Of a stretch of 64,000 bases of DNA, positions 5,801 to 61,155 are shown piece after piece. Made by a program: the position numbers and the translations under genes. The number at the start of each line of letters is the position of its first letter. Positions within the stretch are counted from its first letter, which is position 1. The stretch comes from Patescibacteria group bacterium (GTDB lineage: Bacteria; Patescibacteriota; Patescibacteriia; JAHJFT01): NCBI GenBank assembly GCA_028710985.1, contig JAQTTB010000001.1:167397-231396 (forward strand), in the 5' to 3' direction. The notes below the pieces were generated by a model, which saw nothing but the letters and a program-made list of their open reading frames with translations, was not told where the DNA came from and made no database searches.

Positions 5801-6319
5801 TTATTCGCCCAATTCAATTAATTTAATCGGATTATTAATAATATAATTGCGGATTCTCTCCAAATCGTCATCGCATCGGACGATATGATCATAATACGAT
5901 CTTTGCCATCGAAAATCCGTTAAACCCATTTGATGAATTAATTTTGATGATGTGGTTTTAAACGCGCCAATCAATTCGGGAATCGGTTTAATTTTTCCCG
6001 GTAGGGACAGGTCGCGACCTGTCCCTACGTCGTGGTCGCGACCTGTCCCTACGATGGGATTATTGATGATTATTATTCCATGAAAATGGTTGGGCATTAC
6101 AACGGATTGATCCAATTTGATATATAAATATTGTTCCGCTAACCACAACCATTGTTTTTTGACAATCTCGCCAAATTTATTTAATTGCATCACGCCGTCA
6201 TGAATGCAACCGAAAACATGCGAACGATCATTAACACATGTGGTAATAAAATAAAAACCGTTTTGCGAATAATCGTACTCGCTCAAACGGTTTAATTTTC
6301 TATCCTTCTCTTGCGGCAT
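5801..6319 (-). CDS. IS200-like / REP-associated tyrosine transposase (RAYT) with an in-frame REP palindrome insertion
   Basis: Start taken at MPQEKDRK (Met 43 of the track ORF 5801..6445, which otherwise overlaps the upstream gene). HuH motif MPNHFHGIIII. Catalytic-Tyr region RSYYDHIV...YIINNPIK. Between these motifs the palindrome GTAGGGACAGGTCGCGACCTGTCCCTAC (plus a partial second copy) encodes GTGRDHDVGTGRD. Confidence 0.7.
   Translation of the reverse strand: MPQEKDRKLNRLSEYDYSQNGFYFITTCVNDRSHVFGCIHDGVMQLNKFGEIVKKQWLWLAEQYLYIKLDQSVVMPNHFHGIIIINNPIVGTGRDHDVGTGRDLSLPGKIKPIPELIGAFKTTSSKLIHQMGLTDFRWQRSYYDHIVRCDDDLERIRNYIINNPIKLIELGE
6001..6052. repeat. REP-like palindrome GTAGGGACAGGTCGCGACCTGTCCCTAC (1.8 copies, tandem) inside the RAYT ORF
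   Basis: Perfect 28 bp palindrome at 6001..6028, followed by GTCGTGGTCGCGACCTGTCCCTAC. A near-identical copy is at 38011..38038. Confidence 0.8.
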
Positions 6320-6329
6320 TATAAAAAAA

Positions 6330-7265
6330 TTAAAGAGTTGTAATCGGCCGTGATTGGACGATATAAAATTTTCCGCCCTCAAGCGCCCATTCAATATCCT
6401 GCGGCGCGCCGTAATGCTCTTCGATTTTTTTACAAATTTTCGCAAGCGCGACGATGTCTTTATTGGAAATTTTTTGCACGGTCTGGCGCTCGCGGGGAAC
6501 CGCGGTCTCCCTGGTGCCGACCGTGCTCTGTGAAATCATTTTTTCCTGGCGGCTCACATTCACGTCCAGAATCGCGAGCGTTGGCTTATCGACAATATAC
6601 GTATCCGGCGTGATGATGCCGCCGACAATCGCCTCACCCAGTCCCCAGCCCGCCTCAATCACCATTTGGTTTAAATCCTTGGTTACCGGATGCGCGGTAA
6701 AACAAATGCCCGAAACCTCGGACTGAATCATCTTTTGTACGACAACCGCTACCAAAACTTTTCTTTCATGCAGATTTTTTTCAAAACGGTAAAAAATCGC
6801 GCGCGGCGTATAAAGCGATGACCAACATTTTTGAATCGCGGCCGCGATCCGCCCCTCGGTGATATCAAGATATGATTCCAACTCTCCGGCCCAGGAAGCA
6901 ATTGCCGAATCCTCGGCCGTGGCGGATGAACGCACGGCCACAAATTCCGCGCCCAAATCTTTAAATGACTTTTTAATCTCTCTCGCCATCTCTTCCGGAA
7001 ACTCGGCATCGCGGATTAAGTCGCGGATTTTTATTGACGCCTCTTCCACGGATTTAATATCCTGTGAATTTACTTTTTTGAGAATCGCCGCGATTTCCAC
7101 GTTCAAATCCGAAATTTTCAAAAATTCGTCAAATGCCGAAGCGAGCACCACGAATCCGGGCGGCACCGGCATCTTGGCCCGGGTCATCTCACTGAGCGAC
7201 GCCCCCTTGCCGCCGGCAATAGCCACGTCTTTGGCAGAAAGCTGTTTAAAATTTTTGATAAACAT
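6330..7265 (-). CDS. PEP synthase / pyruvate phosphate dikinase-like N-terminal ATP-binding (PPDK_N) domain protein
   Basis: MFIKNFKQLSAKDVAIAGGKGASLSEMTRAKMPVPPGFVVLASAF matches the PPDK_N/PEP synthase nucleotide-binding domain consensus. It is the second gene of a two-gene unit with 7267..8403. Confidence 0.75.
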   Translation of the reverse strand: MFIKNFKQLSAKDVAIAGGKGASLSEMTRAKMPVPPGFVVLASAFDEFLKISDLNVEIAAILKKVNSQDIKSVEEASIKIRDLIRDAEFPEEMAREIKKSFKDLGAEFVAVRSSATAEDSAIASWAGELESYLDITEGRIAAAIQKCWSSLYTPRAIFYRFEKNLHERKVLVAVVVQKMIQSEVSGICFTAHPVTKDLNQMVIEAGWGLGEAIVGGIITPDTYIVDKPTLAILDVNVSRQEKMISQSTVGTRETAVPRERQTVQKISNKDIVALAKICKKIEEHYGAPQDIEWALEGGKFYIVQSRPITTL

Positions 7266-12453: not shown

Positions 12454-13086
12454 CTAAATATTTTCTATTCTTTTATAACAAGTTAATTCGGCACCCTCAA
12501 TCTGAAAAGATTTTTCAAATTTAATTGCATCAGATTTATAAAAGGCTTCTCCGTCGAATGAAGGATCGTGAATTACTATCTCATCACCATTAATATCTAA
12601 TATAACCACCCTATGCAAAGAATAACGCGGCGGTTCTTCACCATATATTACCCATGGGTCTAGCATAACATCACAAACATAGTCTTTAGAAAAAAAATCC
12701 TTCAGCAAGGACACTGTCGGCTTTTGATAATAAAATTTAAAATTCTTACTTGCCAATAAATACTTAAGATCAACTTGATATTCGGCGGGATTAGCGATTC
12801 TATCGTTTAAAAAAATAAACGCCTTGGGGTCAATGTCTTCCCGAAATTTTGAGAATCCATCTTTCGCCCAAGTATTATAATTATTCTCACTAAAATCCAC
12901 AATCTCAACATCATTCTTTTCCACTAAAAACTTCCAAAAAGGAGCGAATCCTATTTCAGATTTTGTAATTTTTAAGATATCCTCCAGTGAATAATGCAAG
13001 CCCAGGGCATTCGCCACCATCGTGAAGTCTGCCGACGCGCAAGATGTTTCATCGATTTGTTTAATTTGAAGAATATTATATTTCAT
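12454..13086 (-). CDS. Papain-like cysteine peptidase domain protein (C39-like, putative)
   Basis: Very AT-rich ORF. A candidate Cys nucleophile sits in ETSCASADFTMVANALG (compare C39 NDCGxAxLAMI). A downstream HRVVILDINGDEIVIHDP motif is a candidate His/Asp region. No signal peptide. Confidence 0.4.
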   Translation of the reverse strand: MKYNILQIKQIDETSCASADFTMVANALGLHYSLEDILKITKSEIGFAPFWKFLVEKNDVEIVDFSENNYNTWAKDGFSKFREDIDPKAFIFLNDRIANPAEYQVDLKYLLASKNFKFYYQKPTVSLLKDFFSKDYVCDVMLDPWVIYGEEPPRYSLHRVVILDINGDEIVIHDPSFDGEAFYKSDAIKFEKSFQIEGAELTCYKRIENI

Positions 13087-13148
13087 TGTCTAAACCAATC
13101 AAATAATATAGTATATTAAGTGTATATTATATAAATTACAGCAAAACA

Positions 13149-14186
13149 ATGAAAAAATCAATGGAAGCAATATCTTTAAAGTGGGTAAGCCCTTTTTGGT
13201 ATTTAGGCTGTGATCAAAATTGCCAAGAATGTTTTATAGGTGAAAAAAATCGCGTAATTACTAATCTAGATATCAGGAAAAAAGCGATAGATACTCTGGC
13301 AAATAATAAAACCGAGGAAATTTTTTTATGTGGTGGTAACCCGATATTAGATCCGTTTATTGAAAAAACAGTTGAATATATCAAAACAAAAAAAATTTTA
13401 GTCGAGCTATTGAGCAACAGCTGGGATATTAATGGAAATAAATCTATAAAAAATAAAGAAAAATTTCTTCGTAATATTGATGATAGGGCCGCTACCTTTT
13501 GGGGAGGAGATGCTCAGACTCATGACAAAATATGCGGCTGCGTTGGCTCTTTTTCTAGATTAATGAATAACTTGGAAAAAATTTCCCGACAAGGATATCC
13601 TGTAATCTGTATTTTAAATGTCGTGCCGCAAAATAAAAATGACATTTATAAAACAATTAAAGAACTTAAAAGTAAAATTAATATAACTAAAGTCTGGTTG
13701 CAAAGAATATTCCCATATGGCAATGCGCTGCAAAGTGATTCTTCGACAATTTCGTTGCGACCTAATGATTTTAATTTAATTTTGAAACAATTAGTTAAGG
13801 CAAAGAATGATTTCAATTTAACGGATATATCTCTTGATTCAACTCCGCCTTTCTGCATGGTTGATAAAAAGTATTTCCAACTTATAGAAACATATAAGAG
13901 AGGGCTTTCGTTTTGGGCCTTAGATTATAAATGTAGATTATTTGGGGAATCTTTTGATGTTATAAATCCAGAATTTGCCCTGTTTGATGGAAAACCAATT
14001 TATGAAGTTGATAATCTGATCAATACAATCAAAAAAGATCCCCGAACGCAAGAGATCTTTGCCAAAAAATATTTACCCGAGAAATGCAAAATATGTGATA
14101 TCGATGAATGCTTCGGCGGATATTTAGTAAGAGATAAAGACGGACAATTAATAGTTGACCCCGTTCTATCAAAAAATTTAAGCTAA
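13149..14186 (+). CDS. Radical SAM enzyme with C-terminal SPASM-like Cys cluster (peptide-maturase-like)
   Basis: CDQNCQEC is the CX3CX2C radical-SAM motif near the N-terminus. FLCGGNPILDP is a GGEP-like SAM-binding motif. The C-terminus has CKICDIDECFGG plus earlier Cys (CMVD, CRLFG), consistent with SPASM/twitch auxiliary clusters. ~30% GC. Confidence 0.7.
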   Translation: MKKSMEAISLKWVSPFWYLGCDQNCQECFIGEKNRVITNLDIRKKAIDTLANNKTEEIFLCGGNPILDPFIEKTVEYIKTKKILVELLSNSWDINGNKSIKNKEKFLRNIDDRAATFWGGDAQTHDKICGCVGSFSRLMNNLEKISRQGYPVICILNVVPQNKNDIYKTIKELKSKINITKVWLQRIFPYGNALQSDSSTISLRPNDFNLILKQLVKAKNDFNLTDISLDSTPPFCMVDKKYFQLIETYKRGLSFWALDYKCRLFGESFDVINPEFALFDGKPIYEVDNLINTIKKDPRTQEIFAKKYLPEKCKICDIDECFGGYLVRDKDGQLIVDPVLSKNLS

Positions 14187-14903
14187 TTTACCTCCATCTA
14201 CGGGAAGGCAAACTCCGTTTATATAACTAGCTTCCTCGCTTATAAAAAATGAAATGGTATTCACTATTTCTAATAAATCCGCCATCCTACCGATTGGGGT
14301 AGACTGTTCATAATTTATAATTTCCCTTTTAAATTCTTCTGTATTTTTTGAGTAAAATCTAGCGGCATTAATTGCCATACCTTTTCTACCTATAGCGGCG
14401 GGACAAATAGAATTGCAAGTAATATTATACTTAGCATACTCTTTAGCCATTGTTCTCGTCAGTCCATTTAAAGCAAACTTCGTTACGTTATATGAAACAG
14501 TATATTCATATCCTCTTAAACCATTGATTGAAGAGATATTAACAATTCTGCCCCAATTTTGTTTCATCATATGAGGCAACACTAGCTTAGAAATTTTAAA
14601 AGGAAGCATTAAGTTTACTTCAAATGCTTTACGCATCATTTCATCTTTAACAGTATGGGTTGCCCCTCCGAACGAGCCGACTCCGACTGCATTAATTACA
14701 ATATCAAAATTTTTGGGTACTTTTCTTATATCTAAGTCCACGACCTGGATTGGACGGGCAGAAAATTTTTTACCTAAAGCTCCTGCTTCTTTTTTTGAAC
14801 TGTTATAGGTAAATGATATCTCATATCGTTTCTTGAGAGAAAGGATCTCTAGCAATTCTTTACCTAAAGCACCAGTACCGCCGGTAATTAATATTTTTTT
14901 CAT
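14178..14903 (-). CDS. Short-chain dehydrogenase/reductase (SDR) family oxidoreductase
   Basis: The N-terminal ILITGGTGALGKEL is a Rossmann TGxxxGxG motif. Y-x3-K is in YNVTK. 241 aa, typical of classical SDRs. AT-rich like its two neighbours. Confidence 0.8.
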   Translation of the reverse strand: MKKILITGGTGALGKELLEILSLKKRYEISFTYNSSKKEAGALGKKFSARPIQVVDLDIRKVPKNFDIVINAVGVGSFGGATHTVKDEMMRKAFEVNLMLPFKISKLVLPHMMKQNWGRIVNISSINGLRGYEYTVSYNVTKFALNGLTRTMAKEYAKYNITCNSICPAAIGRKGMAINAARFYSKNTEEFKREIINYEQSTPIGRMADLLEIVNTISFFISEEASYINGVCLPVDGGKLA

Positions 14904-32927: not shown

Positions 32928-33027
32928 ATTATGAAAATAATATCAAAAAAACGGCCAAATGGCAATTCTGGATGAAAAGAAATCCCGTGTTCACGAGAAC
33001 ACGGGACAGTTAAGTTGTGGGAAGCGT

Positions 33028-33264
33028 CTACTTCCTCTTTTTGAAGCACCTCCTATTCCCCTTGCGCCTTATGAGCTCTTTGCGTTCGTAAGAGTCCAGA
33101 CAGTCCCAGCAGCGATCGCTGCCCTCGGCTACTGGCTCTTTGCATCCGTAGACGCAAAGACCGTCGTCATCCTCCATGAGCTCCGGCAAGCTGATTCCCG
33201 ACGCGATCACGCGACCAGCCGCCACTCCCTGGAGGAATCTCTCCTCATCTTCGCTCTGTCTCAC
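33028..33264 (-). CDS. GC-rich Cys-rich small protein (78 aa)
   Basis: CVYGCKEPVAEGSDRCWDCL gives a 4-Cys cluster with a basic C-terminus. ~62% GC. Confidence 0.4.
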   Translation of the reverse strand: MRQSEDEERFLQGVAAGRVIASGISLPELMEDDDGLCVYGCKEPVAEGSDRCWDCLDSYERKELIRRKGNRRCFKKRK

Positions 33265-33274
33265 TCCACCCTCC

Positions 33275-33577
33275 TCACTGTGTTCTGGCTCCCCTCAGCT
33301 TCTTGAACTGATGCGGCCAGCAACGTTTGCTGCCATTGAAAGTCGACAGGACCGTACCGCATCCCGGAAAATCGCATCGGCGACCGGGAGGAAACGTCTT
33401 CTGCGTTCCGCCGATCGTTGACGCGAGTCCGCGCGTACCTCGCCGCACTGCCGTTGCGTACCGTGCAACCACCGAGTCCTCTCCTCTCATGCCACCTCCC
33501 TGACCCGTCGCTCGCGAGTGACGGGTCGCTGACCCCAAAAAAACGGGGCGCTGTGTTTTATAAGGCAATTCTAGCAT
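33275..33577 (-). CDS. GC-rich Cys-rich small protein with a CPxCG-type zinc-ribbon-like motif (100 aa)
   Basis: RCDFPGCGTVLSTFNGSKRCWPHQF fits C-x4-C ... C-x2-H, suggesting a zinc-binding element. ~63% GC. Confidence 0.4.
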   Translation of the reverse strand: MLELPYKTQRPVFLGSATRHSRATGQGGGMRGEDSVVARYATAVRRGTRGLASTIGGTQKTFPPGRRCDFPGCGTVLSTFNGSKRCWPHQFKKLRGARTQ

Positions 33578-33685
33578 AAATTACGATTTTGTCAAGTAGG
33601 GGCGACTCGCGAGTCGCCCCTACTTGACGATTAATAAATATTTCTCTACAATAAGCTTAAATTTTAGTCTCGTCCGCTTTGCCTT

Positions 33686-33759
33686 GCGCCCATAGCTCAG
33701 TTTGGTAGAGCAGTTGCCTCTTAAGCAAACGGTCGTGGGTTCAAATCCCTCTGGGCGCA
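33686..33759 (+). tRNA. tRNA-Lys (anticodon CTT)
   Basis: GCGCCCA-TA-GCTC-AGTTTGGTA-GAGC-A-GTTGC-CTCTTAA-GCAAA-CGGTC-GTGGG-TTCAAAT-CCCTC-TGGGCGC-A. The acceptor and D/T loops are canonical. There is one mismatch each in the anticodon stem and the T stem. Confidence 0.6.
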
Positions 33760-33827
33760 GAGCAAAGCCGGACGGAAAAAAACAAAGAGGCATGTGCAAT
33801 CGACTGATAAATTATTAAATACAGCCT

Positions 33828-35540
33828 ATGGCAAATATAAGCATCGATGTAAGAAAAAAAACGATACAAGAACTTATCGACGACGAAATTCCGTCAGGCA
33901 GATATTGGTTACCATCTTTTCAGCGACAATATGTTTGGGATGCAGACAATGTCAAGGAGTTGCTCGATTCTATTGTACGTAATTATCCGATAGGAGCAAC
34001 CATACTTTGGAAGCCATCGCCAGAAGTTGCTTCCGACATTGATCCAACGTCCGTCCCGTTGGTTGATAGTGCACCCTCAAATACTACAGATAGGTATTTC
34101 GTTATTGACGGACAGCAACGCACTACCTCTCTGCTTCTTCTTTTCAACGACTGGGCAGTAGTGCGCGGCGGCGAGAGAATAACATGCGACCCCATCGCAT
34201 ACGACCCCACGTCCGATAAATTTATTAAGCACCGAAATAGGGGCATCGATTGCTCAAAAATTGTAAAGGCATTCTGCCGTCATGATGTTGAAACACTCAC
34301 TGAGTTAAATAATAACTATAACGCAGACGACTTCAACAAAATACGCGCAATAGCACAAAAAATCCTAGAGTATCCAATACCTCAATATGTTATGGAAACT
34401 TCAGGAGAAGCAACGGAAAGAGAAGATATATTTTCTCGAATGGCAGAGGCATTTGTGCGCATTAATAAAGAAGGTCTGAGAATAGGGAATGTCGAACTTA
34501 TGCTTTCTTTCTTGGCCGGAACGTTAAGCGGTGAGTTAAAAACACGAGTTGTACAACTATACCAAGAGTATGAAAAACGTGATGCATTTATACAACCTAT
34601 CATCCGCTCCGTATTCTCTAATTTTGGACTCTCACAAACGCAATTAGCGAAACCGAAACAATTTAAAGCCAATATTGAACGAATTAGAGAAATCTCTACC
34701 GACGATATAGCTAGGCGACTCAATACGAGCAGTAGAGCGCTTCAGCTTACTTTCAATTTCATTGAAAAAGAATTTGGTATGAGAAGTGCGCGTCTGATTC
34801 CTTCTCAAACAACTTTAATTCCGCTAGCGACATATTTTTCAAAAGTAAGTTTTGAGAAACTCGAGGAAATGCCCGCAGAAGATCGCGAGCGCATGACTTC
34901 TTGGTTTATGCTGGCAAATCTGAATGGACATTATAGCTCCAGCGTGGACACACGGTTGAGCCGTGATATCAAGATGATTCAAGATATGAGTAGCTTCCCC
35001 TTTCTTGAAATGCAAACCGCTATGAAAGTAAGAAAACACATCAATCTCGAATGGATTCAGGATGGGTTAGAAAGAAGTGCATTACGAGAAGCAAACAAAG
35101 CATTTGTTTTTTTGCTTTATGTTCTACTTATTAAAAATAATGCTGACGATTGGGATACGCGCTTAATCGCTTCACGCGATCTGAAAGAGTTAGAGCGACA
35201 TCACATTTTTCCAAAAGAATATTTAAGACAAGAACTAGAGCTCGATGATGTCGAGGACCCCGCAGAGGCGGAAATTGAGGTAAGCAACCTCGCGAACATT
35301 ACCTTTATTTTAAAAGAAAAAAACTCTACAATCGGTGATACGCCACCTAAGGATTACCTGCCACAGCTCATAGATCGAGCAAAATTACATTTTATCCCCG
35401 AAGACGAGAATCTATGGACCAAAGAAGCGTATGATAGTGGTCTATTCCAAAATGCACGCCTTCAAATTATCTTTGAAGCCGCGCTGAAACATTTTCCTGA
35501 CGTTTTCAAGATAGAATTATGTGATAAAGAAACCCAGTAA
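33828..35540 (+). CDS. GmrSD-like type IV restriction endonuclease (DUF262 ParB-like NTPase domain + DUF1524 HNH-like nuclease domain)
   Basis: The N-terminus YWLPSFQRQYVWD is the DUF262 DGQQR-type motif; VIDGQQRTTSL is also present. The C-terminus HHIFPKEYL is a DUF1524 His-Me finger motif. 570 aa, AT-rich, directly 3' of a tRNA. Confidence 0.8.
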   Translation: MANISIDVRKKTIQELIDDEIPSGRYWLPSFQRQYVWDADNVKELLDSIVRNYPIGATILWKPSPEVASDIDPTSVPLVDSAPSNTTDRYFVIDGQQRTTSLLLLFNDWAVVRGGERITCDPIAYDPTSDKFIKHRNRGIDCSKIVKAFCRHDVETLTELNNNYNADDFNKIRAIAQKILEYPIPQYVMETSGEATEREDIFSRMAEAFVRINKEGLRIGNVELMLSFLAGTLSGELKTRVVQLYQEYEKRDAFIQPIIRSVFSNFGLSQTQLAKPKQFKANIERIREISTDDIARRLNTSSRALQLTFNFIEKEFGMRSARLIPSQTTLIPLATYFSKVSFEKLEEMPAEDRERMTSWFMLANLNGHYSSSVDTRLSRDIKMIQDMSSFPFLEMQTAMKVRKHINLEWIQDGLERSALREANKAFVFLLYVLLIKNNADDWDTRLIASRDLKELERHHIFPKEYLRQELELDDVEDPAEAEIEVSNLANITFILKEKNSTIGDTPPKDYLPQLIDRAKLHFIPEDENLWTKEAYDSGLFQNARLQIIFEAALKHFPDVFKIELCDKETQ

Positions 35541-35556
35541 ACAAAGCGAGTATCCT

Positions 35557-35865
35557 ATGAAAATCACACTCATCATTCTAATCATTATTTCTCTTCTCCT
35601 CGCCGCGACAATCGGCGGCGGCCTGATTTATTATCAAAATCAAATCAACGGGCTTAATGGTCAGATTGCCGAACAGCAAATCCGGCTCACGAATCTCGGA
35701 ACCCAGGTACTAGAAAAAGAGCAGGCCATCAGCGATCTCGGCTTGGCCGCCAATTCGTCAACCGAACAAATTGCCGAGCTCCAAACTCAAATTGAAGAAT
35801 TGAATAAAAAAATTCAAGAACTGGAAAAAGCCAAGCAAGAACTCGAACAGCAAAAAACGCGTTAA
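35557..35865 (+). CDS. Small membrane-anchored coiled-coil protein
   Basis: MKITLIILIIISLLLAATIGG is a TM helix, followed by heptad-rich segments (LQTQIEELNKKIQELEKAKQELEQ). Start moved to an internal ATG that does not overlap the GmrSD stop. Confidence 0.55.
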   Translation: MKITLIILIIISLLLAATIGGGLIYYQNQINGLNGQIAEQQIRLTNLGTQVLEKEQAISDLGLAANSSTEQIAELQTQIEELNKKIQELEKAKQELEQQKTR

Positions 35866-35869
35866 TACA

Positions 35870-35900
35870 AATTCCCCCGTCCACGGGGAATTTTTTATTT
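35870..35900 (+). terminator. Rho-independent terminator (ttcccccgtccacggggaa + T-run)
   Basis: 7 bp G/C stem with T6 tail, after the coiled-coil gene and before ruvB. Confidence 0.75.
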
Positions 35901-35940
35901 CTTGCGCTTTCCGAATATTCTTGATAACCTTTGAGATAGT

Positions 35941-36975
35941 ATGGCTGAATTCAATCTCAAATCCGACCGCCTTACCGATCCCAAAGAAACCGGCGAAGAC
36001 CGGAGTTTTGATATTTCCCTGCGGCCCAAGACGCTCGCCGATTTTGTCGGCCAGAATAAAATCAAGGAAAATCTGGATATTTTCATGCAGGCCGCGCGGC
36101 AAAGAAGCGAGCCCATCGAGCATGTTCTCCTCTACGGCAATCCCGGCCTCGGCAAAACCACTCTTGCGCACATCATCGCGCGCGAAATGGATTCGGATAT
36201 CAAGGTTACTTCCGGCCCGGCGCTTGAACGCGTCGGCGACCTCGCCGCCATTCTCACGAATCTTGAAGAAGGAGACATTCTTTTCATTGATGAAATCCAC
36301 CGCATGAACAAAACCATTGAAGAAATTCTTTATCCGGCCATGGAAGACTATGCCCTGGATATCATCATCGGCAAAGGCCCGAGCGCCCGCACCCTGCGAC
36401 TCGACCTCAAACGCTTTACCATCATCGGCGCGACCACTCGCATCTCTCTGCTTTCAGCGCCGCTCCGCGACCGCTTCGGCGCCACCTACCACCTAAATTA
36501 TTACGAACCCGAGGATATCGAAAAAATTATCGGACGGAACGCCCGCATTTTGAGCATCGATATTGACCCCGCGGCCGTCGGCCAGATCGCGTCGCGCTCC
36601 CGCCGCACTCCGCGCGTCGCCAACCGCCTGCTCCGCCGCGTGCGCGATTTTGCCCAGGTCAAATCGGATGGTAGAATAAATGATGAAGCGACCCGGGGCG
36701 CCCTCGCGCTCATGGAGGTTGACGAATACGGCCTTGACCAGGTTGACCGCAAAATGCTGGAAATTATTATCAGCAAATTTGCCGGCGGACCGGTCGGCCT
36801 CTCCACTCTCGCCGCCGCAACCGGTGAAGAAATCGCCACCATTGAAGAAATTTACGAACCATTCCTCATGCAAATCGGATTTCTCCAGCGCACACCGCGC
36901 GGCCGCACGGTCACCGAAGCCGCCTACCGCCACCTCGGCCTCAATCCCCCGAAAAATCAAACCTCACTCCTATGA
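35941..36975 (+). CDS. ruvB: Holliday junction branch migration ATPase RuvB
   Basis: [16 protein letters not shown] is Walker [10 protein letters not shown] is Walker B. The domain order is RuvB-specific. Confidence 0.95.
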
Positions 36976-45034: not shown

Positions 45035-45058
45035 CACCTCGTTTGTCCCGAAACCTTT

Positions 45059-45131
45059 GGGCTCGTAGTTCAGTTGGTAGAACGCCTCGTTTGCAACGAG
45101 GAGGTCACCGGTTCGAATCCGGTCGAGTCCA
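45059..45131 (+). tRNA. tRNA-Ala (anticodon TGC)
   Basis: GGGCTCG-TA-GTTC-AGTTGGTA-GAAC-G-CCTCG-TTTGCAA-CGAGG-AGGTC-ACCGG-TTCGAAT-CCGGT-CGAGTCC-A, with the G3:U70 Ala identity pair. It is flanked by the inverted repeat cccgaaacctttgg / ccaaaggtttcggg. Confidence 0.85.
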
Positions 45132-45203
45132 AAGGTTTCGGGAGGGAAGTCACCCCGACGTAACGTCGGGGTCGGGTCCACCAGATTAAATTAAACAAAC
45201 GTT

Positions 45204-48326: not shown

Positions 48327-48370
48327 TGAGATACAAAAAATCACCCTTACGGATGATTTTTTGATAATCC

Positions 48371-48484
48371 CGGCAATGACCTACTTTTCCGGACGCTAGG
48401 CGTCCAGTAACATCGGCGCTGGAGGGCTTAACTACCGTGTTCGATATGGGAACGGGTGTGGCCCCTCCGCGAAAATCACCAGGG
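48371..48484 (-). rRNA. rrf: 5S ribosomal RNA
   Basis: The reverse complement CCTGGTGATTTTCGCGGAGGGGCCACACCCGTTCCCATATCGAACACGGTAGTTAAGCCCTCCAGCGCCGATGTTACTGG... matches the 5S helix I/loop B/loop C consensus. Ends are approximate (+/-5 nt). Confidence 0.85.
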
Positions 48485-49011: not shown

Positions 49012-49780
49012 CATTCTGTTACTTTGCCAAACCACATCCGTTTTCAACCGGTGCTCTGTGGTGATTCCGACTTTCGTCGGAACTCTGCATGTCGCCATGC
49101 AGTTCGGACTATATCTTATCCCGATATATTTCGGAATTTCGGCATATAGTCTCTGAGGATTTCAAGGAATCTAATACAATTTTCTTATTAATTTTTCGGT
49201 ATTTACCGGCGCAATTCATACTGTAAGCAAAGCAAATAATTCTTTTAGCGCCATCAATGGTTGAGTGATCTGCATTCTCCATCATATCCACTATGCGCTT
49301 AAAAATTACCATTGCGTCATGTTTCTTTGAAATTAAAGGATACTTCTCGAAAAATGGAATTATCGTCTTTCTTAAGTCATTCCTATTTCTAACCACATAC
49401 ACCAGCGTATCATCTTTTTTATTTCGAGCGTGATTATTTTTGATATAGCCACAACCGAAATAATTTTTAATCGCTTCCAGAGTTTCTTTACGCAAATAAC
49501 TCTGATTTATGTGGAATTCAGGAATGAATTTAAGACCTGTTTTCATTTTTGCGTCTTTATAAATCGCAATATGAAAAGTTCCTTCGCCTTCAACGAAACC
49601 GGTAATATACCATGGATTTAGATTCTTCGATCTTTCCTGCTGATTATCTGCACTCATCACTTTTTTACTTTAATATATATATTATATCAAAGTAGTGTGA
49701 GATTCACAAGCCTCACTCCTTTTTGAGGCTCTCCAGACTTTCCAGCATTTAGCCGAATTTATAGACAGCACGATCTTCAT
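49012..49780 (-). mobile_element. Group I intron in 23S rRNA at the I-CreI-type site (E. coli ~2593, after GAGACAGT)
   Basis: The 23S exon sequence GAACGTCGTGAGACAGT | TCGGTCTCCTATCCACCATGGGCG is split by 769 nt that contain a LAGLIDADG ORF. Confidence 0.8.
49109..49660 (-). CDS. LAGLIDADG homing endonuclease (single-motif, I-CreI-like)
   Basis: WYITGFVEGEGTF is a LAGLIDADG motif near the N-terminus. 183 aa, AT-rich, encoded entirely within the 23S intron. Confidence 0.8.
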   Translation of the reverse strand: MMSADNQQERSKNLNPWYITGFVEGEGTFHIAIYKDAKMKTGLKFIPEFHINQSYLRKETLEAIKNYFGCGYIKNNHARNKKDDTLVYVVRNRNDLRKTIIPFFEKYPLISKKHDAMVIFKRIVDMMENADHSTIDGAKRIICFAYSMNCAGKYRKINKKIVLDSLKSSETICRNSEIYRDKI

Positions 49781-49824
<44 letters not shown>

Positions 49825-49837
49825 TGGCGAACAGCCA

Positions 49838-49893
<56 letters not shown>

Positions 49894-50002
49894 TCTCCGT
49901 CGTCGATATGGACTCTTGGACGGAATCAGCCTGTTATCCCCGGAGTAGCTTTTATCCGTTGAGCTCCCGCCGTCCTACTTCGAACGGTCGGATCACTAAC
50001 TT

Positions 50003-50034
<32 letters not shown>

Positions 50035-50382
50035 GCAGTAAAGCCGACTTATGCGTTTGCACTTTCAGCCCGATTTCCATCCGGGCCAAGTCGACCTTTG
50101 TAAACGCCTCCGTTACTTTTTAGGAGGCAACCGCCCCAGTTAAACTACCCACCAGTTACTGTCTCCCAAACCGGATTCACGGTTCGAGATTAGAATACAC
50201 ACAACACAAGGGTGGTATCTCACTGTTGTCCCGAAGGACTCCCACCTATTCTGAACATGCGGAGCATGTATCCAATAACAAGTTATAGTAAAGCTTCACG
50301 GGGTCTTTTCGTCCAGCCATGGGTAAATCGCATCTTCACGACTCTTGTAATTTCACCGAGTCCCTCGTTGAGACAGTCCCCC

Positions 50383-50413
<31 letters not shown>

Positions 50414-50415
50414 CG

Positions 50416-50461
<46 letters not shown>

Positions 50462-51267
50462 GCGTTCATCCGCGCTTAAGATCAAGGCTTTTCCCGAAGG
50501 ATAACCTCTCCCCTTAACGTTCGGACACTGGCCAGGCATCAGCCCCTATACATCACCTTACGGTTTAGCAGGGACCTGTGTTTTTGGTAAACAGTCGCTA
50601 GGAATACTTTAGCTGCGCCCCAACACGAGGTTGGGGAGGCTTTATCCCGAAGTTACAGCCGCTTATTTGCAGAGTTCCTAAACGAGGGTTCTCTCGTACG
50701 CCTTGGCACACTTATGCCCACCCACCTGTGTCGGTTTACAGTACGGATACCTAAAAGTTTAATGCTAGAGGCTTTTCTTGGCTCCACGTCTTCTCATATT
50801 GGCCGGTATTACCAGCCTTTAGATCGCCTGCGGCCTGATGGCCCGCGGATTTACCTGCGGACCGGCGCGCAAACGCCCTACGCATATAACCAAAATACGC
50901 TAGAGATTTCGGGAAGCGTCCCCCCATCGCGCTCTTAGGTAGTGCAGGAATATTAACCTGCTCATCCATCGGTTACGCCTTTCGGCCTCACCTTAGGACC
51001 GACTAACCCTGGGACGAAGGTCGTTGCCCAGGAAACCTTGGGTTTACGGCGGAGAGGATTCTCACCTCTCTTTTTGTTACTAATGCCAACATTCTCTCTT
51101 CTCATCGCTCCACCGAACCTCACAGTTCGACTTCAACGCAATGAGAACGCTCCTCTACCACTCGCTCCGATAAATCGGAACGAATTCTCGTCTTCGGTAC
51201 TAAGTTTTAGCCCCGAAATATTTTCGGCGCAAAGCAACTTGACCAGTGAGCTGTTACGCTATCTTTA

Positions 51268-51305
<38 letters not shown>

Positions 51306-52813
51306 AGTCGCTCCACAGCCTTTCACACTTAACCTAGATTTTGGGACCTTAGACGGAGATCTGGGCTTTTTCCCTTTCGACTAATGGAGCTTAGCCCCCA
51401 CAGTCTGACTGCCAGGAACACTTTACGGTATTCGGAGTTTGGTTAGGAGGAGTAGATTTCTCCCTCCGTCCCATTCAGTGCTCTACCCCCGTAAAGCTAT
51501 TAACTGACGCTAGCCCTAAAGCTATCTCGAGGAGAACCAGCTATTACCGAGTTCGATTGGAATTTCTCCGCTATCCACAACTCATCCCCGCGTGTTGCAC
51601 GGCGCGTGAGTTCGGGCCTCCATTCCGCCTTCGCGGAACTTCACCCTGGTCATGGATAGGTCACCCGGTTTCGGGTCTTGCATGCGCTACCATAGACGCC
51701 CGTTAAGGCTCGCTTTCACTATGGCTCCGCCCCCGCAGGGGCTTAACCGGCAACGCATGACAAACTCGTTGGCTCATTCTTCAATAGGAATGCCGTCACC
51801 CCGACTTGCGTCGGGGCTCCGACTTTTTGTAAGCACACGGTTTCAGATACTGTTTCATCTCCCTTCCGGGATGCTTTTCAACTTTCCCTCGCGGTACTTG
51901 TTCACTATCGATCACAAGAAGTATTTAGTCTTGCCACATAGTCGTGGCTGATTCCCACAGGATTTCACGAGTCCCGTGGTACTCTAGGTTGAATGCTATA
52001 AATAGAGATCCCCTTTCGCGTACAGGGCTATCACCTTCTTTGGCTCCGCTTTCCAGCGGATTCTACTAGGGAAGATCGCTTTATTTACCAAGGCTTGCAA
52101 GCGCCTTGAACGCAAACACCCGCAACCCCCCGCAGACATATGGTCTTGCAACCTTAGGCGCAAACTCTATTTCACCCGAAGGTGTCACTTTGTTCACGCT
52201 TGGTCTGCGAGGTTTGGACTGATCCCTTTTCGCTCGCCACTACTCAGGGAATGGGCTGACCGATAAGTATCCGGCTCGCAAGATACGAGCCAAATACTTA
52301 AGGCCAGCATTGTTTTCTGTTCCTCTGGCTACTGAGATGTTTCACTTCGCCAGGTTGCCTTCTTGCACCTATGTATTCAGTGCAAAATATCCCATTCTTC
52401 CAATGGGATGGGTTTCCCCATTCGGATATCCCCGGGTCAAAGGTTGCTTGCCACCTAACCGAGGCTTTTCGCAGGCTGCTACGTCCTTCATCGTCTTCTT
52501 ATGTCGAGTCATCCTCCGTGCGCTCTTCGTGCTTCTACAACCATTTAAACTTTTTAGTTCAAATGGCACGTACAAGATTTTAATGATGCTATTTACTCGT
52601 CATTATTAAATTGTCAATGTTCACTTGGCCTTGTGGCCAAACCCTGTTCGTCTGGTCGCAAGTGAGTCAAAAAACCGCCCGGTCGTGTCCAAGCGGTGCG
52701 AAAACAAGCATTAAAACTGCGTCAACTGATTGGACACGTATTTGATTGGCTTGAAACTCTCATATTTTAGCGAAAAAATGCTCTTTTTATGATAATTATT
52801 TTAAACTGCCCAT

Positions 52814-52875: not shown

Positions 52876-53508
52876 TTAATTAGATTTTTGAAAAATTACC
52901 TCAAATGAATCAATCAATTTCTTTCTTATCCGATTAACATCCAACGGCATTTGATTCACGCTTTTTTTTGTAATAACGCCAAAACCGACTTTTTCAGCTG
53001 TTTCAATTACTTTTTCCGGATCATGATAATAATATGGAACATCATACCCCTTTACGCCTTGAACCGAACTATTGTTCACGACAAAACTCAATGCAACGTA
53101 GCCCTTCGGACGCAGGGCCATATACCAATTTTCAAGTAGTATTTTCGCAATGTCGGAACTAATATATTGCAAAAAACGAGTTGCCACAACGGCCAAATAT
53201 TTTTCCTTTTCAAAAACAAATTTCTCAGCCTCTGCTTCGGTAAATGTAATCAAACCATGCTCTTTGTATTCCGATGGAAAAATATCAACAACATCAACGG
53301 CATCTACTCCATAGCCCATGCGAGCAAAAAAAACTGAATTCCGGCCATTGCCCGCACCAACATCCAGAACATGTCCGGGCAATTCCATATAATACGAAAG
53401 GTCTTGGCAAATCAAACTTGGCGTAGTTCTGGCAACGTAAAAACCATTATTATACGCCGTTCGCCAGCGTTGTTTAAAATCCTCGTTTACTGAAGGCATA
53501 TTTATCAA
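52876..53508 (-). CDS. Class I SAM-dependent methyltransferase (TehB-like)
   Basis: VLDVGAGNGRNSVFFARMGYGVDAVD resembles the TehB SAM-binding region (LDLGCGxGRNSLYL). Confidence 0.7.
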   Translation of the reverse strand: MINMPSVNEDFKQRWRTAYNNGFYVARTTPSLICQDLSYYMELPGHVLDVGAGNGRNSVFFARMGYGVDAVDVVDIFPSEYKEHGLITFTEAEAEKFVFEKEKYLAVVATRFLQYISSDIAKILLENWYMALRPKGYVALSFVVNNSSVQGVKGYDVPYYYHDPEKVIETAEKVGFGVITKKSVNQMPLDVNRIRKKLIDSFEVIFQKSN

Positions 53509-56970: not shown

Positions 56971-57360
56971 ATGATTAATAAAAATAAAATATATAATTTG
57001 GAAGAAAGAACGGCGGTTATGGGTATTGACACAATCAAAATGTGTAAAAATATTAAACACGATATAATAATAAATCCTCTAATATCACAGCTCATACGTT
57101 CAGCTACCAGCGTTGGTGCGAATTATATGGAAGCAAATTCCGCATCTTCTAAGCGTGATTTTGTAAATAAAATCTTCATTTGCAAAAAAGAATCGCAAGA
57201 AACTATGCATTGGCTCCGCATGATCAGCGAATGTTGTCCAGAAAAAAGCAAAGAAATCTCACAATTGCGTCAAGAGATGCATGAATTAATATTAATATTT
57301 GGGAGAATAATTGCAACTATAAAAAATAGGGTAAATTCGAAACTCCAAAATCAAAATTAA
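56971..57360 (+). CDS. Four-helix-bundle protein (TIGR02436, '23S rRNA intervening-sequence protein' family)
   Basis: LIRSATSVGANYMEANSASSKRDFVNKIFICKKESQETMHWLRMI matches the family signature (RSAxSIxxNIAEG...DF..KL.IAxKEAxET.YWL.L). AT-rich. Confidence 0.7.
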   Translation: MINKNKIYNLEERTAVMGIDTIKMCKNIKHDIIINPLISQLIRSATSVGANYMEANSASSKRDFVNKIFICKKESQETMHWLRMISECCPEKSKEISQLRQEMHELILIFGRIIATIKNRVNSKLQNQN

Positions 57361-60516: not shown

Positions 60517-61155
60517 ATGAAAAATAAAATCGTAATTCTCATTTTAATCATCATCGTTATCACCATAGCAATAATAATTGGTTTTTATTTTGTTCAAAAA
60601 AATAAATCATCAATCAACTCTATCGAAAATACTGTGCCATCAAGTCAATCTGAAGTAAACAATCAAGCGAATCCCGAACAGCAACAAAATAAATTGGTAA
60701 CTGATGACTTTGAAATCAACCTCCCTACGGGCTGGCGGCAAACTGCTCCTGCGATTGGGGCTTCGGCAATGGCCGTTAATGCCGACGAGCAACTCAACGA
60801 TCCTGCGGCTCAGAAGATTAATTTTAGAAGTTATTTTGCCGTAAGTTATGATACGTTGCAGGGAAAAAATTTAAACGAATATTTGCAAAACGTCGAAAGT
60901 CAGCTGCGGCAAACCATTTCCAATGCTGTTTTTGCTCAAGAGCATGATACGACGATAAATGGAAAAGCGGCTCGGGCGGTTGAGGTGAACCTGACTCAGC
61001 AGGGAGTGGATTTTAAAATTTTAATGGTAGCAATTAAAGGCGTCGGTGATGATGTTTGGGTAATATCCTTCAATACTCTCCAGGGCAGTTGGGCAGAGTA
61101 TCAGGAAACATTCTCCGATATTGCTAGCAGTTTTAATTTGAAAAAATTAGATTGA
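60517..61155 (+). CDS. Secreted/membrane-anchored hypothetical protein (212 aa)
   Basis: N-terminal TM/signal region (IVILILIIIVITIAIIIGFYFV), a Gln/Asn-rich linker, then a globular domain. No confident family. Confidence 0.55.
   Translation: MKNKIVILILIIIVITIAIIIGFYFVQKNKSSINSIENTVPSSQSEVNNQANPEQQQNKLVTDDFEINLPTGWRQTAPAIGASAMAVNADEQLNDPAAQKINFRSYFAVSYDTLQGKNLNEYLQNVESQLRQTISNAVFAQEHDTTINGKAARAVEVNLTQQGVDFKILMVAIKGVGDDVWVISFNTLQGSWAEYQETFSDIASSFNLKKLD

Follow-up and report, generated by a model that had tools for sequence, protein, structure and literature searches.

A solitary BrxU-like member of the GmrSD family between a tRNA-Lys gene and ruvB in a Patescibacteria chromosome

We analysed a window of Patescibacteria DNA (the whole stretch of 64,000 nucleotides, nt) and, within it, a gene for a 570-amino-acid (aa) protein of the GmrSD family, hereafter called the restriction gene. 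Its open reading frame (ORF) runs on the plus strand from an ATG at 33828 to a stop at 35540 in the ORF list. It begins 67–68 nt, by ARAGORN coordinates, past an intact tRNA-Lys(CTT) gene of the same strand (33685–33760 by ARAGORN, 33686–33759 by Rfam); this closeness to a tRNA-Lys gene had been remarked in a preliminary description of the window, drawn up from its letters alone. A second plus-strand ORF of 102 aa (35557–35865) starts 16 nt past the stop; it encodes an N-terminal transmembrane helix followed by a coiled coil, again as described, and is called as a gene in independent assemblies. Both ORFs share a terminator-like hairpin with a T-rich tail (35869–35903, plus strand). The GC-rich 9-bp stem of this hairpin (35869–35877 paired with 35885–35893; −11.3 kcal/mol, z −2.9) is followed by a run of T; the hairpin is thus real, but moderate rather than strong as first described. 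The plus-strand ruvB gene (35941–36975) forms the conserved flank, and its synteny with a downstream bPH-domain gene is kept in most of 80 Patescibacteria relatives. On the other side, proS lies upstream of the tRNA gene.

What is the 570-aa protein? The coordinates and the motifs (QRQYVW, here within SFQRQYVW, VIDGQQRTTSL, and HHIFPKEYL) had been given correctly in the preliminary description, which also placed it in the architecture of the GmrSD and BrxU enzymes. This placement holds, and the precise neighbor is BrxU. The Pfam family GmrSD_N/DUF262 (PF03235) matches aa 14–229 (nt 33867–34514) with 96.7 bits, against a cut-off of 33.2 (E 2.5e-27). A helical linker (aa ~230–450 in the predicted structure) connects this domain to a C-terminal His-Me finger (aa ~429–508, nt 35112–35351), with the catalytic pair His458–His459 encoded at nt 35199–35204. 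Among the defense models of PADLOC, the top match is HEC-05 (PDLC04151; E 5.5e-39), which aligns aa 166–550 of the protein with positions 218–587 of the 600 in the model, and three more HEC-05 models match as well. HEC-05 equals BrxU, with 99.2% identity (Payne et al., bioRxiv 10.1101/2024.01.29.577857). The SspE, Orf5, NsnA, and PD-T4-2 models of PADLOC match the N-terminal domain, and those of SspE, Orf5, and NsnA cover only its first ~100 residues. In the Protein Data Bank (PDB), BrxU (7p9k) is the sole strong match, with an E-value of 5e-12 for the single sequence. A profile of 35 homologues improves this to 7e-29 over three segments, the third of which contains the nuclease motif and aligns HHIFPK...N...N with DHIYPK...N...N of BrxU. 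The protein is therefore a GmrSD-family member whose nearest neighbor is BrxU rather than SspE or Eco94GmrSD. NCBI lists the identical sequence under the name DUF262 protein, on a 744.5-kb contig of a Patescibacteria metagenome-assembled genome (MAG).

The alignment of these 35 homologues (34–86% identity), which served for the profile, the conservation analysis, and an AlphaFold model, shows that the residues expected of such an enzyme are retained. Gln32, Arg33, Ser48, Asp94-Gly95-Gln96-Gln97-Arg98, Phe209, Asn213, His458, His459, Pro462, and Asn490 are invariant, and Asn499 is conserved in at least 90% of the sequences. Accordingly, each DUF262 motif—QR (Gln32-Arg33), Leu45-Leu46-Asp47-Ser48, Asp94–Arg98, and Phe209...Asn213—is either invariant or at least 90% conserved. 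The first three align with Gln26/Arg27, Leu39–Ser42, and Asp98–Arg102 of BrxU, while His458/His459, Asn490, and Asn499 align in the profile with its Asp474/His475 and Asn509/Asn518–519. Several of the BrxU residues Gln26/Arg27, Ser42, Asp98–Arg102, Asp474/His475, and Asn509/Asn518–519 are needed for phage resistance (PMC8565348). The family-defining QR, RLFDS-like, DGQQR, FxxxN, and His-Me positions include several that BrxU or TgvB requires for activity.

The AlphaFold model (predicted local distance difference test score 85.4) consists of a β-rich N-terminal domain, a long helical linker, with helices from residue 142 to 436, and a ββα unit at residues 455–502. In this unit, His458/His459 end the strand 455–459, Asn490 precedes the strand 491–495, and Asn499 lies in the helix 496–502, as in a His-Me finger. 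When the model was compared with the PDB by Foldseek, the BrxU chains ranked first (7p9k_A; E 3.7e-13, probability 1.00), over the full length and 623 aligned columns; ParB/Noc and the HNH domain of Cas9 followed far behind. The nonsynonymous divergence (dN) from the nearest homologues is 0.08–0.09, and the synonymous divergence (dS) is saturated, so that only dN << dS can be stated. The restriction gene is therefore under purifying selection. The same ORF is intact in three assemblies and is colinear with homologues of 563–574 aa.

How does the protein compare with the characterized members of the superfamily? BrxU, encoded by the plasmid pEFER of E. fergusonii (PDB 7P9K/7P9M), is its best match in sequence, profile, and fold. 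Both are single chains of ~570–590 aa, composed of DUF262, a helical linker, and a His-Me finger of the DUF1524 type, and both carry the motifs QR, (R/E)L(F/L)DS, DGQQR, and xHI(Y/F)P...N...N. BrxU is also a stand-alone effector. The differences are in identity (~17–18% in the structural alignment), in the His-Me motif, which begins with HH here and with DH in BrxU, in the host, which is a Patescibacteria MAG here, and in the gene context. BrxU typically, although not strictly, accompanies bacteriophage exclusion (BREX), Hma, or type I restriction–modification (R-M) systems, whereas the present gene sits alone between the tRNA gene and ruvB.

The founding type IV enzymes Eco94GmrSD and EcoCTGmrSD contain the same Pfam pair (PF03235 and PF07510); they also have in common with it the motifs DGQQR and HNH, in the definition of Machnicka et al. 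2015 (PMC4619093). By analogy with them, nucleoside triphosphate (NTP)-dependent cutting of DNA with sugar-modified hydroxymethylcytosine would be the expected function. They are more distant than BrxU, and our PDB and PADLOC searches gave no match specific to them. The phosphorothioate-sensing nickase SspE resembles the protein in its DUF262 domain over about the first 100 residues (aa ~12–106), with no match beyond; it is itself ~770 aa long and has SspABCD as its partner, and no such genes occur among the window ORFs examined. Profile comparisons against defense and structure models, a check proposed in the preliminary description, thus return HEC-05/BrxU as the best hit. Finally, TgvAB from the VPI-2 island of V. 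cholerae includes a GmrSD-family DUF262 + DUF1524 nuclease with the same motifs. TgvB depends on TgvA, a second DUF262 protein, while here no second DUF262 gene is present and the adjacent small ORF is unrelated.

The enzyme has homologues dispersed over other Patescibacteria, Syntrophomonadaceae, Persephonella, Saccharicenans, Thermococcaceae, Archaeoglobus, Methanotrichaceae, and others. The subfamily is small, with 92 cluster representatives at E ≤ 1e-30 as compared with 6168 for the superfamily at E ≤ 1e-3, in a search of 1.84 billion such representatives. Its clade, which has the HH variant and a length of ~555–575 aa, occurs mostly in archaea, thermophiles, and candidate phyla. Since the clade is common to archaea, thermophilic bacteria, and candidate phyla, this distribution points to gene flow between the domains. 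The nearest homologues (85–86% identical in amino acids and 77% in nucleotides; loci L089/L090 and L091) lie in neighborhoods unrelated to that of the window, and so do the more distant homologues in L083, L084, L092, and L117.

Judged by its RuvB relatives, the host belongs with lineages like the Magasanik-, Uhr-, Kerfeld-, and Komeilibacteria. In none of 80 species-level relatives does either the restriction gene or the 102-aa ORF stand next to ruvB. In addition, the G+C (GC) content of the restriction gene is 0.407 (0.368 at third codon positions), as compared with 0.545 for proS and 0.558 for ruvB. The lower GC content than in the flanks, the absence beside ruvB in the 80 relatives, and the unrelated contexts of the nearest homologues together argue for horizontal acquisition; in these comparisons, the gene behaves like a mobile accessory gene and not like a core gene, as the preliminary description had proposed. 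In five other loci of the family, the gene usually equals its host contig in GC content or falls slightly short of it. Exact look-ups of the ProRS, RuvB, and enzyme sequences returned only contigs of the same genome, and an exact 50-nt tRNA-Lys pattern had no match in the JGI metagenomes.

Other members of the family are found in varied surroundings. On a Staskawiczbacteria contig (L084), one follows a helicase and an AAA_13 ATPase, in an Hma-like arrangement. In Saccharicenans (L119/L120), another lies beside an EVE-domain protein, an N4/N6 methylase, and an MvaI/BcnI endonuclease, and in Archaeoglobus (L121/L122), one is within an element with a tyrosine integrase and a TraG-like protein. 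Carriage by phages was considered and rejected, as a scan of IMG/VR gave only distant superfamily members with 22–35% identity.

How large is the acquired unit? By blastn, the homology to the window is limited to 33825–35549, with 77% nucleotide identity. Junction alignments extend it slightly on the left, where weak similarity begins ~25 nt ahead of the ATG. On the right, similarity continues for ~30 nt beyond the stop of the homologues, with 21 of 30 identities to L089, and then falls to the background (shuffle p < 5e-5). The homologous segment, which is the probable acquired fragment, therefore spans ~33800–35547 on the plus strand: it starts ~40 nt past the tRNA gene and ends 10 nt ahead of the ATG of the 102-aa ORF. 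In L089 and L091, the right-junction stretch is the start of a conserved ORF of 58–64 aa, and a vestige of this start is present in the window at 35517–35547 (plus strand). In the window copy, the TAA stop of the homologues has become TTA, which lengthens the enzyme by seven codons, and the small ORF has shrunk to an ATG directly followed by TGA. Because the homology stops before the 102-aa ORF, which has no detected homologue and differs from the other small ORFs, the mobile unit, as delimited by these alignments, is essentially the restriction ORF alone and includes neither the 102-aa ORF nor the terminator. In this respect, the preliminary description, which had the unit carry the small ORF and a terminator of its own, is not supported.

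The small ORFs that follow the members of the family are unrelated to each other. The window has the 102-aa transmembrane and coiled-coil protein, L089 and L091 have the soluble 58–64-aa protein, and farther afield, L083 has a 73-aa protein with a transmembrane segment and L117 a 48-aa ribbon–helix–helix protein. We rejected the 102-aa ORF as a conserved partner of the enzyme: it has no homologue, and its matches in Pfam, NCBIfam, PADLOC, and PHROG are due to coiled coils or composition and fall far under the thresholds. Its layout resembles those of the Rz-like i-spanins (phrog_739, E 3e-6; TIGR03495, E 0.007) and of FtsB/DivIC-type proteins, and SMC and LmuB are matched too; the spanin- and FtsB-like matches are probably compositional. 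The conserved soluble ORF behind the nearest homologues (1970–2164 in L089, 1843–1971 in L090, and 4176–4352 in L091) carries no annotation and encodes KFFVVPQT(D/E)EEIERNRKIIEELRA... Its product may act as a partner or a regulator within the L089/L090/L091 sub-lineage.

From where would the restriction gene be transcribed? The only plus-strand promoter-like site between the gene and a palindrome upstream of the tRNA gene is a σ70-like TTGACG-17-TACAAT (33624–33652), identified by its match to the consensus. The palindrome (33591–33628) has two 19-nt arms with 100% complementarity (−35.3 kcal/mol as RNA, z −10), and it contains the −35 boxes TTGACA (minus strand) and TTGACG (plus strand), each belonging to one of two promoter-like sites that point away from each other. 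The palindrome region is probably the start of the transcription unit, and the palindrome may act as a shared operator. Between the tRNA-Lys gene and the ATG of the restriction gene, neither a terminator nor a promoter-like site was found. As no terminator precedes the gene and the first one is located at 35869–35893, the simplest inference from this layout is that the tRNA-Lys, the restriction gene, and the 102-aa ORF are co-transcribed up to that hairpin; the 102-aa ORF would probably share its transcript with the restriction gene. The tRNA gene is further enclosed by a leader–trailer helix, in which ~33669–33684 pairs with ~33760–33777 (duplex −20.8 kcal/mol, z −3.0) and which lies wholly outside the acquired segment. 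Since a similar helix surrounds tRNA-Ala(TGC) (45059–45131; arms 45041–45058 and 45132–45148, −22.4 kcal/mol, z −3.6), the helix seems to belong to tRNA processing in this genome and not to be the scar of an insertion.

Taking these results together, we consider it likely that the restriction gene encodes a solitary, single-chain, modification-dependent type IV endonuclease of the BrxU kind, which was acquired horizontally as an ORF-only fragment of ~1.75 kb and is expressed by read-through from the tRNA. BrxU cuts modified, but not unmodified, DNA in an NTP-dependent manner and has an anti-phage phenotype (PMC8565348). By analogy with it, the ParB/Srx-like DUF262 domain would use its LLDS and DGQQR motifs to bind and hydrolyze NTP and would drive a dimer-to-monomer cycle. 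The DUF1524 His-Me finger (His458–His459, Asn490, and Asn499) would then cleave incoming DNA bearing 5-methylcytosine, 5-hydroxymethylcytosine, glucosyl-5-hydroxymethylcytosine, or similar bases, and the host DNA, devoid of the modification, would be left uncut. The same analogy suggests that chemically modified phage DNA is most likely the target. The fragment, essentially the ORF alone, would have arrived by horizontal transfer and would have been inserted between the intact tRNA-Lys(CTT) gene and the lineage-specific gene for the small membrane protein. Its expression would rely on read-through from the promoter of the tRNA-Lys gene to the terminator at 35869–35893.

Several observations weigh against this interpretation, on both the enzyme and its history. 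The DUF1524 half of the domain assignment made in the preliminary description is the weaker one: while DUF262 is far above its cut-off, GmrSD_C/DUF1524 (PF07510) gives only 16.5 bits for the 570-aa protein, under the cut-off of 23, although 30 of 35 family members match this model at E ≤ 0.01 (best 3e-9). The global TM-score against BrxU is 0.43, owing to a different orientation of the domains, the identity is 17–18%, and the residue before the catalytic histidine is histidine (HHIFP) instead of the aspartate of BrxU (DHIYP). With such a low identity and the Asp-to-His change, the substrate or modification range could differ from that of BrxU. As for the foreign origin, the AT-richness evident against the two flanks is modest against the window, since among the 47 window ORFs of at least 150 aa, the gene has z-scores of only −1.1/−1.4, and ~8 others are equally or more AT-rich. 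The 80 relatives share 57–75% RuvB identity with the host and do not conserve the synteny upstream of ruvB, and none above 75% is available to show the empty site. Finally, the saturation of dS in the comparison with the nearest homologues sampled leaves no ground for claiming a recent transfer.

The proximity of the tRNA gene suggests another history, which the preliminary description favored: site-specific integration into the 3′ end of tRNA-Lys would have brought in the gene together with the small ORF and the terminator as one classical islet, and left scars in the tRNA. The gene is indeed AT-rich relative to its flanks and starts directly behind the tRNA on the same strand, and two other members of the family lie 110 nt downstream of tRNA-Ile(TAT) (L117/L118/L125) and 208 nt downstream of tRNA-Arg(CCG) (L089). 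The tRNA-Lys also has the two stem mismatches that had been pointed out, G27–A43 and U50–U64. However, a Komeilibacteria relative (L039) has exactly the same anticodon arm, G27–A43 included, in its tRNA-Lys(CTT), and U50–U64 is the only mismatch peculiar to the tRNA studied here. ARAGORN and Rfam both find an intact tRNA-Lys, and its Rfam score of 67.8 bits (gathering threshold 29) is within the 59.7–74.6 bits of the other seven window tRNAs; these results do not support reading the mismatches as integration damage. There is no integrase or recombinase between proS and ruvB (32.9–36.0 kb). Searches for a repeat of the tRNA 3′ end (22-mer and 15-mer, up to three mismatches) gave nothing beyond chance, and the 22-mer does not recur at that tolerance anywhere in the window. 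The suggested att site was thus not found, and direct repeats within 33550–36050 do not exceed chance. The tRNA and its leader–trailer helix are intact up to ~33777, and the homology begins only beyond them and ends before the small ORF. The adjacency itself is at the background level: behind 6–7 of the 8 window tRNAs, an ORF of the same strand comes within 125 nt (~0.1 per gene), against which 3 tRNA-adjacent contexts of ~11 give P ~0.09, and among 80 further family loci, an upstream tRNA was found in a single one, of the same lineage as L117. We accordingly rejected tRNA adjacency as a trait of the family, as the 80 loci add no new lineage and the P value is non-significant; it is unproven and at most a hint. 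An islet of this kind is very unlikely.

The remaining alternatives concern the enzyme itself. A different DUF262 function—an SspE-like phosphorothioate-sensing nickase, a DndB-like regulator, or a ParB-like housekeeping NTPase working beside ruvB—would accord with the sub-threshold DUF1524 score, with the adjoining DNA-repair gene, and with the N-terminal matches to the SspE, Orf5, NsnA, and PD-T4-2 models and to the SspE structures. The matches to SspE and its like end after about 100 residues, while BrxU/HEC-05 is followed along the whole protein; all of the His-Me motif is invariant, neither ssp nor dnd genes occur among the ORFs examined, and the linkage to ruvB is seen in 0 of 80 relatives. 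We thus hold such a function to be quite improbable. Might the 102-aa protein instead be the partner of the nuclease, as a sensor, anchor, or antitoxin, in a two-component system like TgvAB or a split GmrS/GmrD? The tight same-strand spacing and the common terminator, together with the small ORFs behind the nearest homologues, are compatible with this idea. However, the small ORFs of the window, L089/L091, L083, and L117 are mutually unrelated, the 102-aa ORF has no homologue and lies beyond the break in DNA homology, and BrxU/HEC-05 works alone, which makes a partnership still harder to credit than a different DUF262 function. We assign almost no probability to a decaying, non-functional remnant of a larger defense cassette. 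Such decay could account for the reduction of the ancestral downstream gene to ~30 nt, the shift of the enzyme stop by seven codons, and the want of a promoter of its own, but the ORF is of full length and colinear with its homologues, retains all of the invariant family residues, evolves with dN far below dS, and is intact in three assemblies. The solitary BrxU-like endonuclease is the reading that we retain.

We also considered a broader scheme, in which promoterless BrxU-like genes have been repeatedly captured just behind tRNA genes (tRNA-Lys here, tRNA-Arg in L089, and tRNA-Ile in L117/L125) in streamlined Patescibacteria, with the tRNA–mRNA co-transcripts separated at the leader–trailer helix, and with the sites behind the tRNA genes serving as landing and expression pads that need no integrase. 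We regard it as doubtful. Leader–trailer helices are absent from the other six window tRNAs. In both tRNA-Lys(CTT) and tRNA-Ala(TGC), CCA is not encoded, and a protein gene of the same strand comes next without an intervening terminator; the helices may serve as stems for the processing of tRNA–mRNA co-transcripts. Other AT-rich ORFs (GC 0.31–0.39) adjoin tRNA genes in the window, at 12454–14903, 52876–53508, 60517–61155, and 56971–57360. A trio of C39-peptidase-like, radical S-adenosylmethionine, and short-chain dehydrogenase/reductase genes lies 3′ of tRNA-Pro, a class I methyltransferase gene lies 9 nt 3′ of tRNA-Ala(CGC), a PsbP-like protein is encoded 3′ of tRNA-Leu(TAA), and a 23S-rRNA-IVP family protein just 5′ of tRNA-Gly.

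The region upstream of the tRNA gene has features of its own. The minus-strand promoter-like site at the palindrome is very strong (TTGACA-16-TG-TAGAAT) and faces small ORFs and proS. Three independent Logan assemblies break exactly at the palindrome. Strain heterogeneity was considered as a cause of the contig breaks and rejected: the contigs break off within the 38-nt palindrome (33624) and inside the tRNA (33706), and we read these breaks as assembly effects. The interval 32930–33580, part of the 750 nt between proS and the tRNA gene, is rich in GC (0.57–0.59) and ambiguous in its coding. Two small minus-strand ORFs (33028–33264 and 33275–33577) have zinc-ribbon-like cysteine motifs, while the gene callers choose an antisense, plus-strand ORF of 115 aa; none of the ORFs in this interval has a Pfam or PHROG match. 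Just upstream of proS, there is a weak Rfam match to an L20 leader (E 0.056).

Elsewhere in the window, no other defense genes came to light, in agreement with the preliminary description: the ten largest other ORFs are free of R-M domains, and CRISPR-like arrays did not turn up. The minus strand encodes a 23S rRNA (49749–52539) and a 5S rRNA (48368–48483), and the spacer between them holds an AT-rich ORF for a LAGLIDADG homing endonuclease (49109–49660; Pfam E 3.9e-23). As no 16S rRNA gene is present in the 64 kb, the rRNA genes appear to be unlinked. Another AT-rich ORF (5801–6445, GC 0.38) has a weak, sub-threshold match to IS200-like Y1 transposases (E 4.8e-4).

What does the restriction gene mean for its host? 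The Patescibacteria, or candidate phyla radiation, have tiny genomes and few recognized defense systems. The present gene adds a clear BrxU-type enzyme to one of their chromosomes. It is an ordinary new solitary member of the well-known BrxU/GmrSD defense family and will not surprise a specialist, as it is already annotated automatically as DUF262 and would be called HEC-05 by PADLOC. The structural picture of the locus is what has changed: the acquired unit is the ORF alone, with the small ORF and the terminator outside it, and the link with the tRNA is no evidence of site-specific integration. Its presence would imply that the host is exposed to phages or other mobile DNA whose cytosines are modified.

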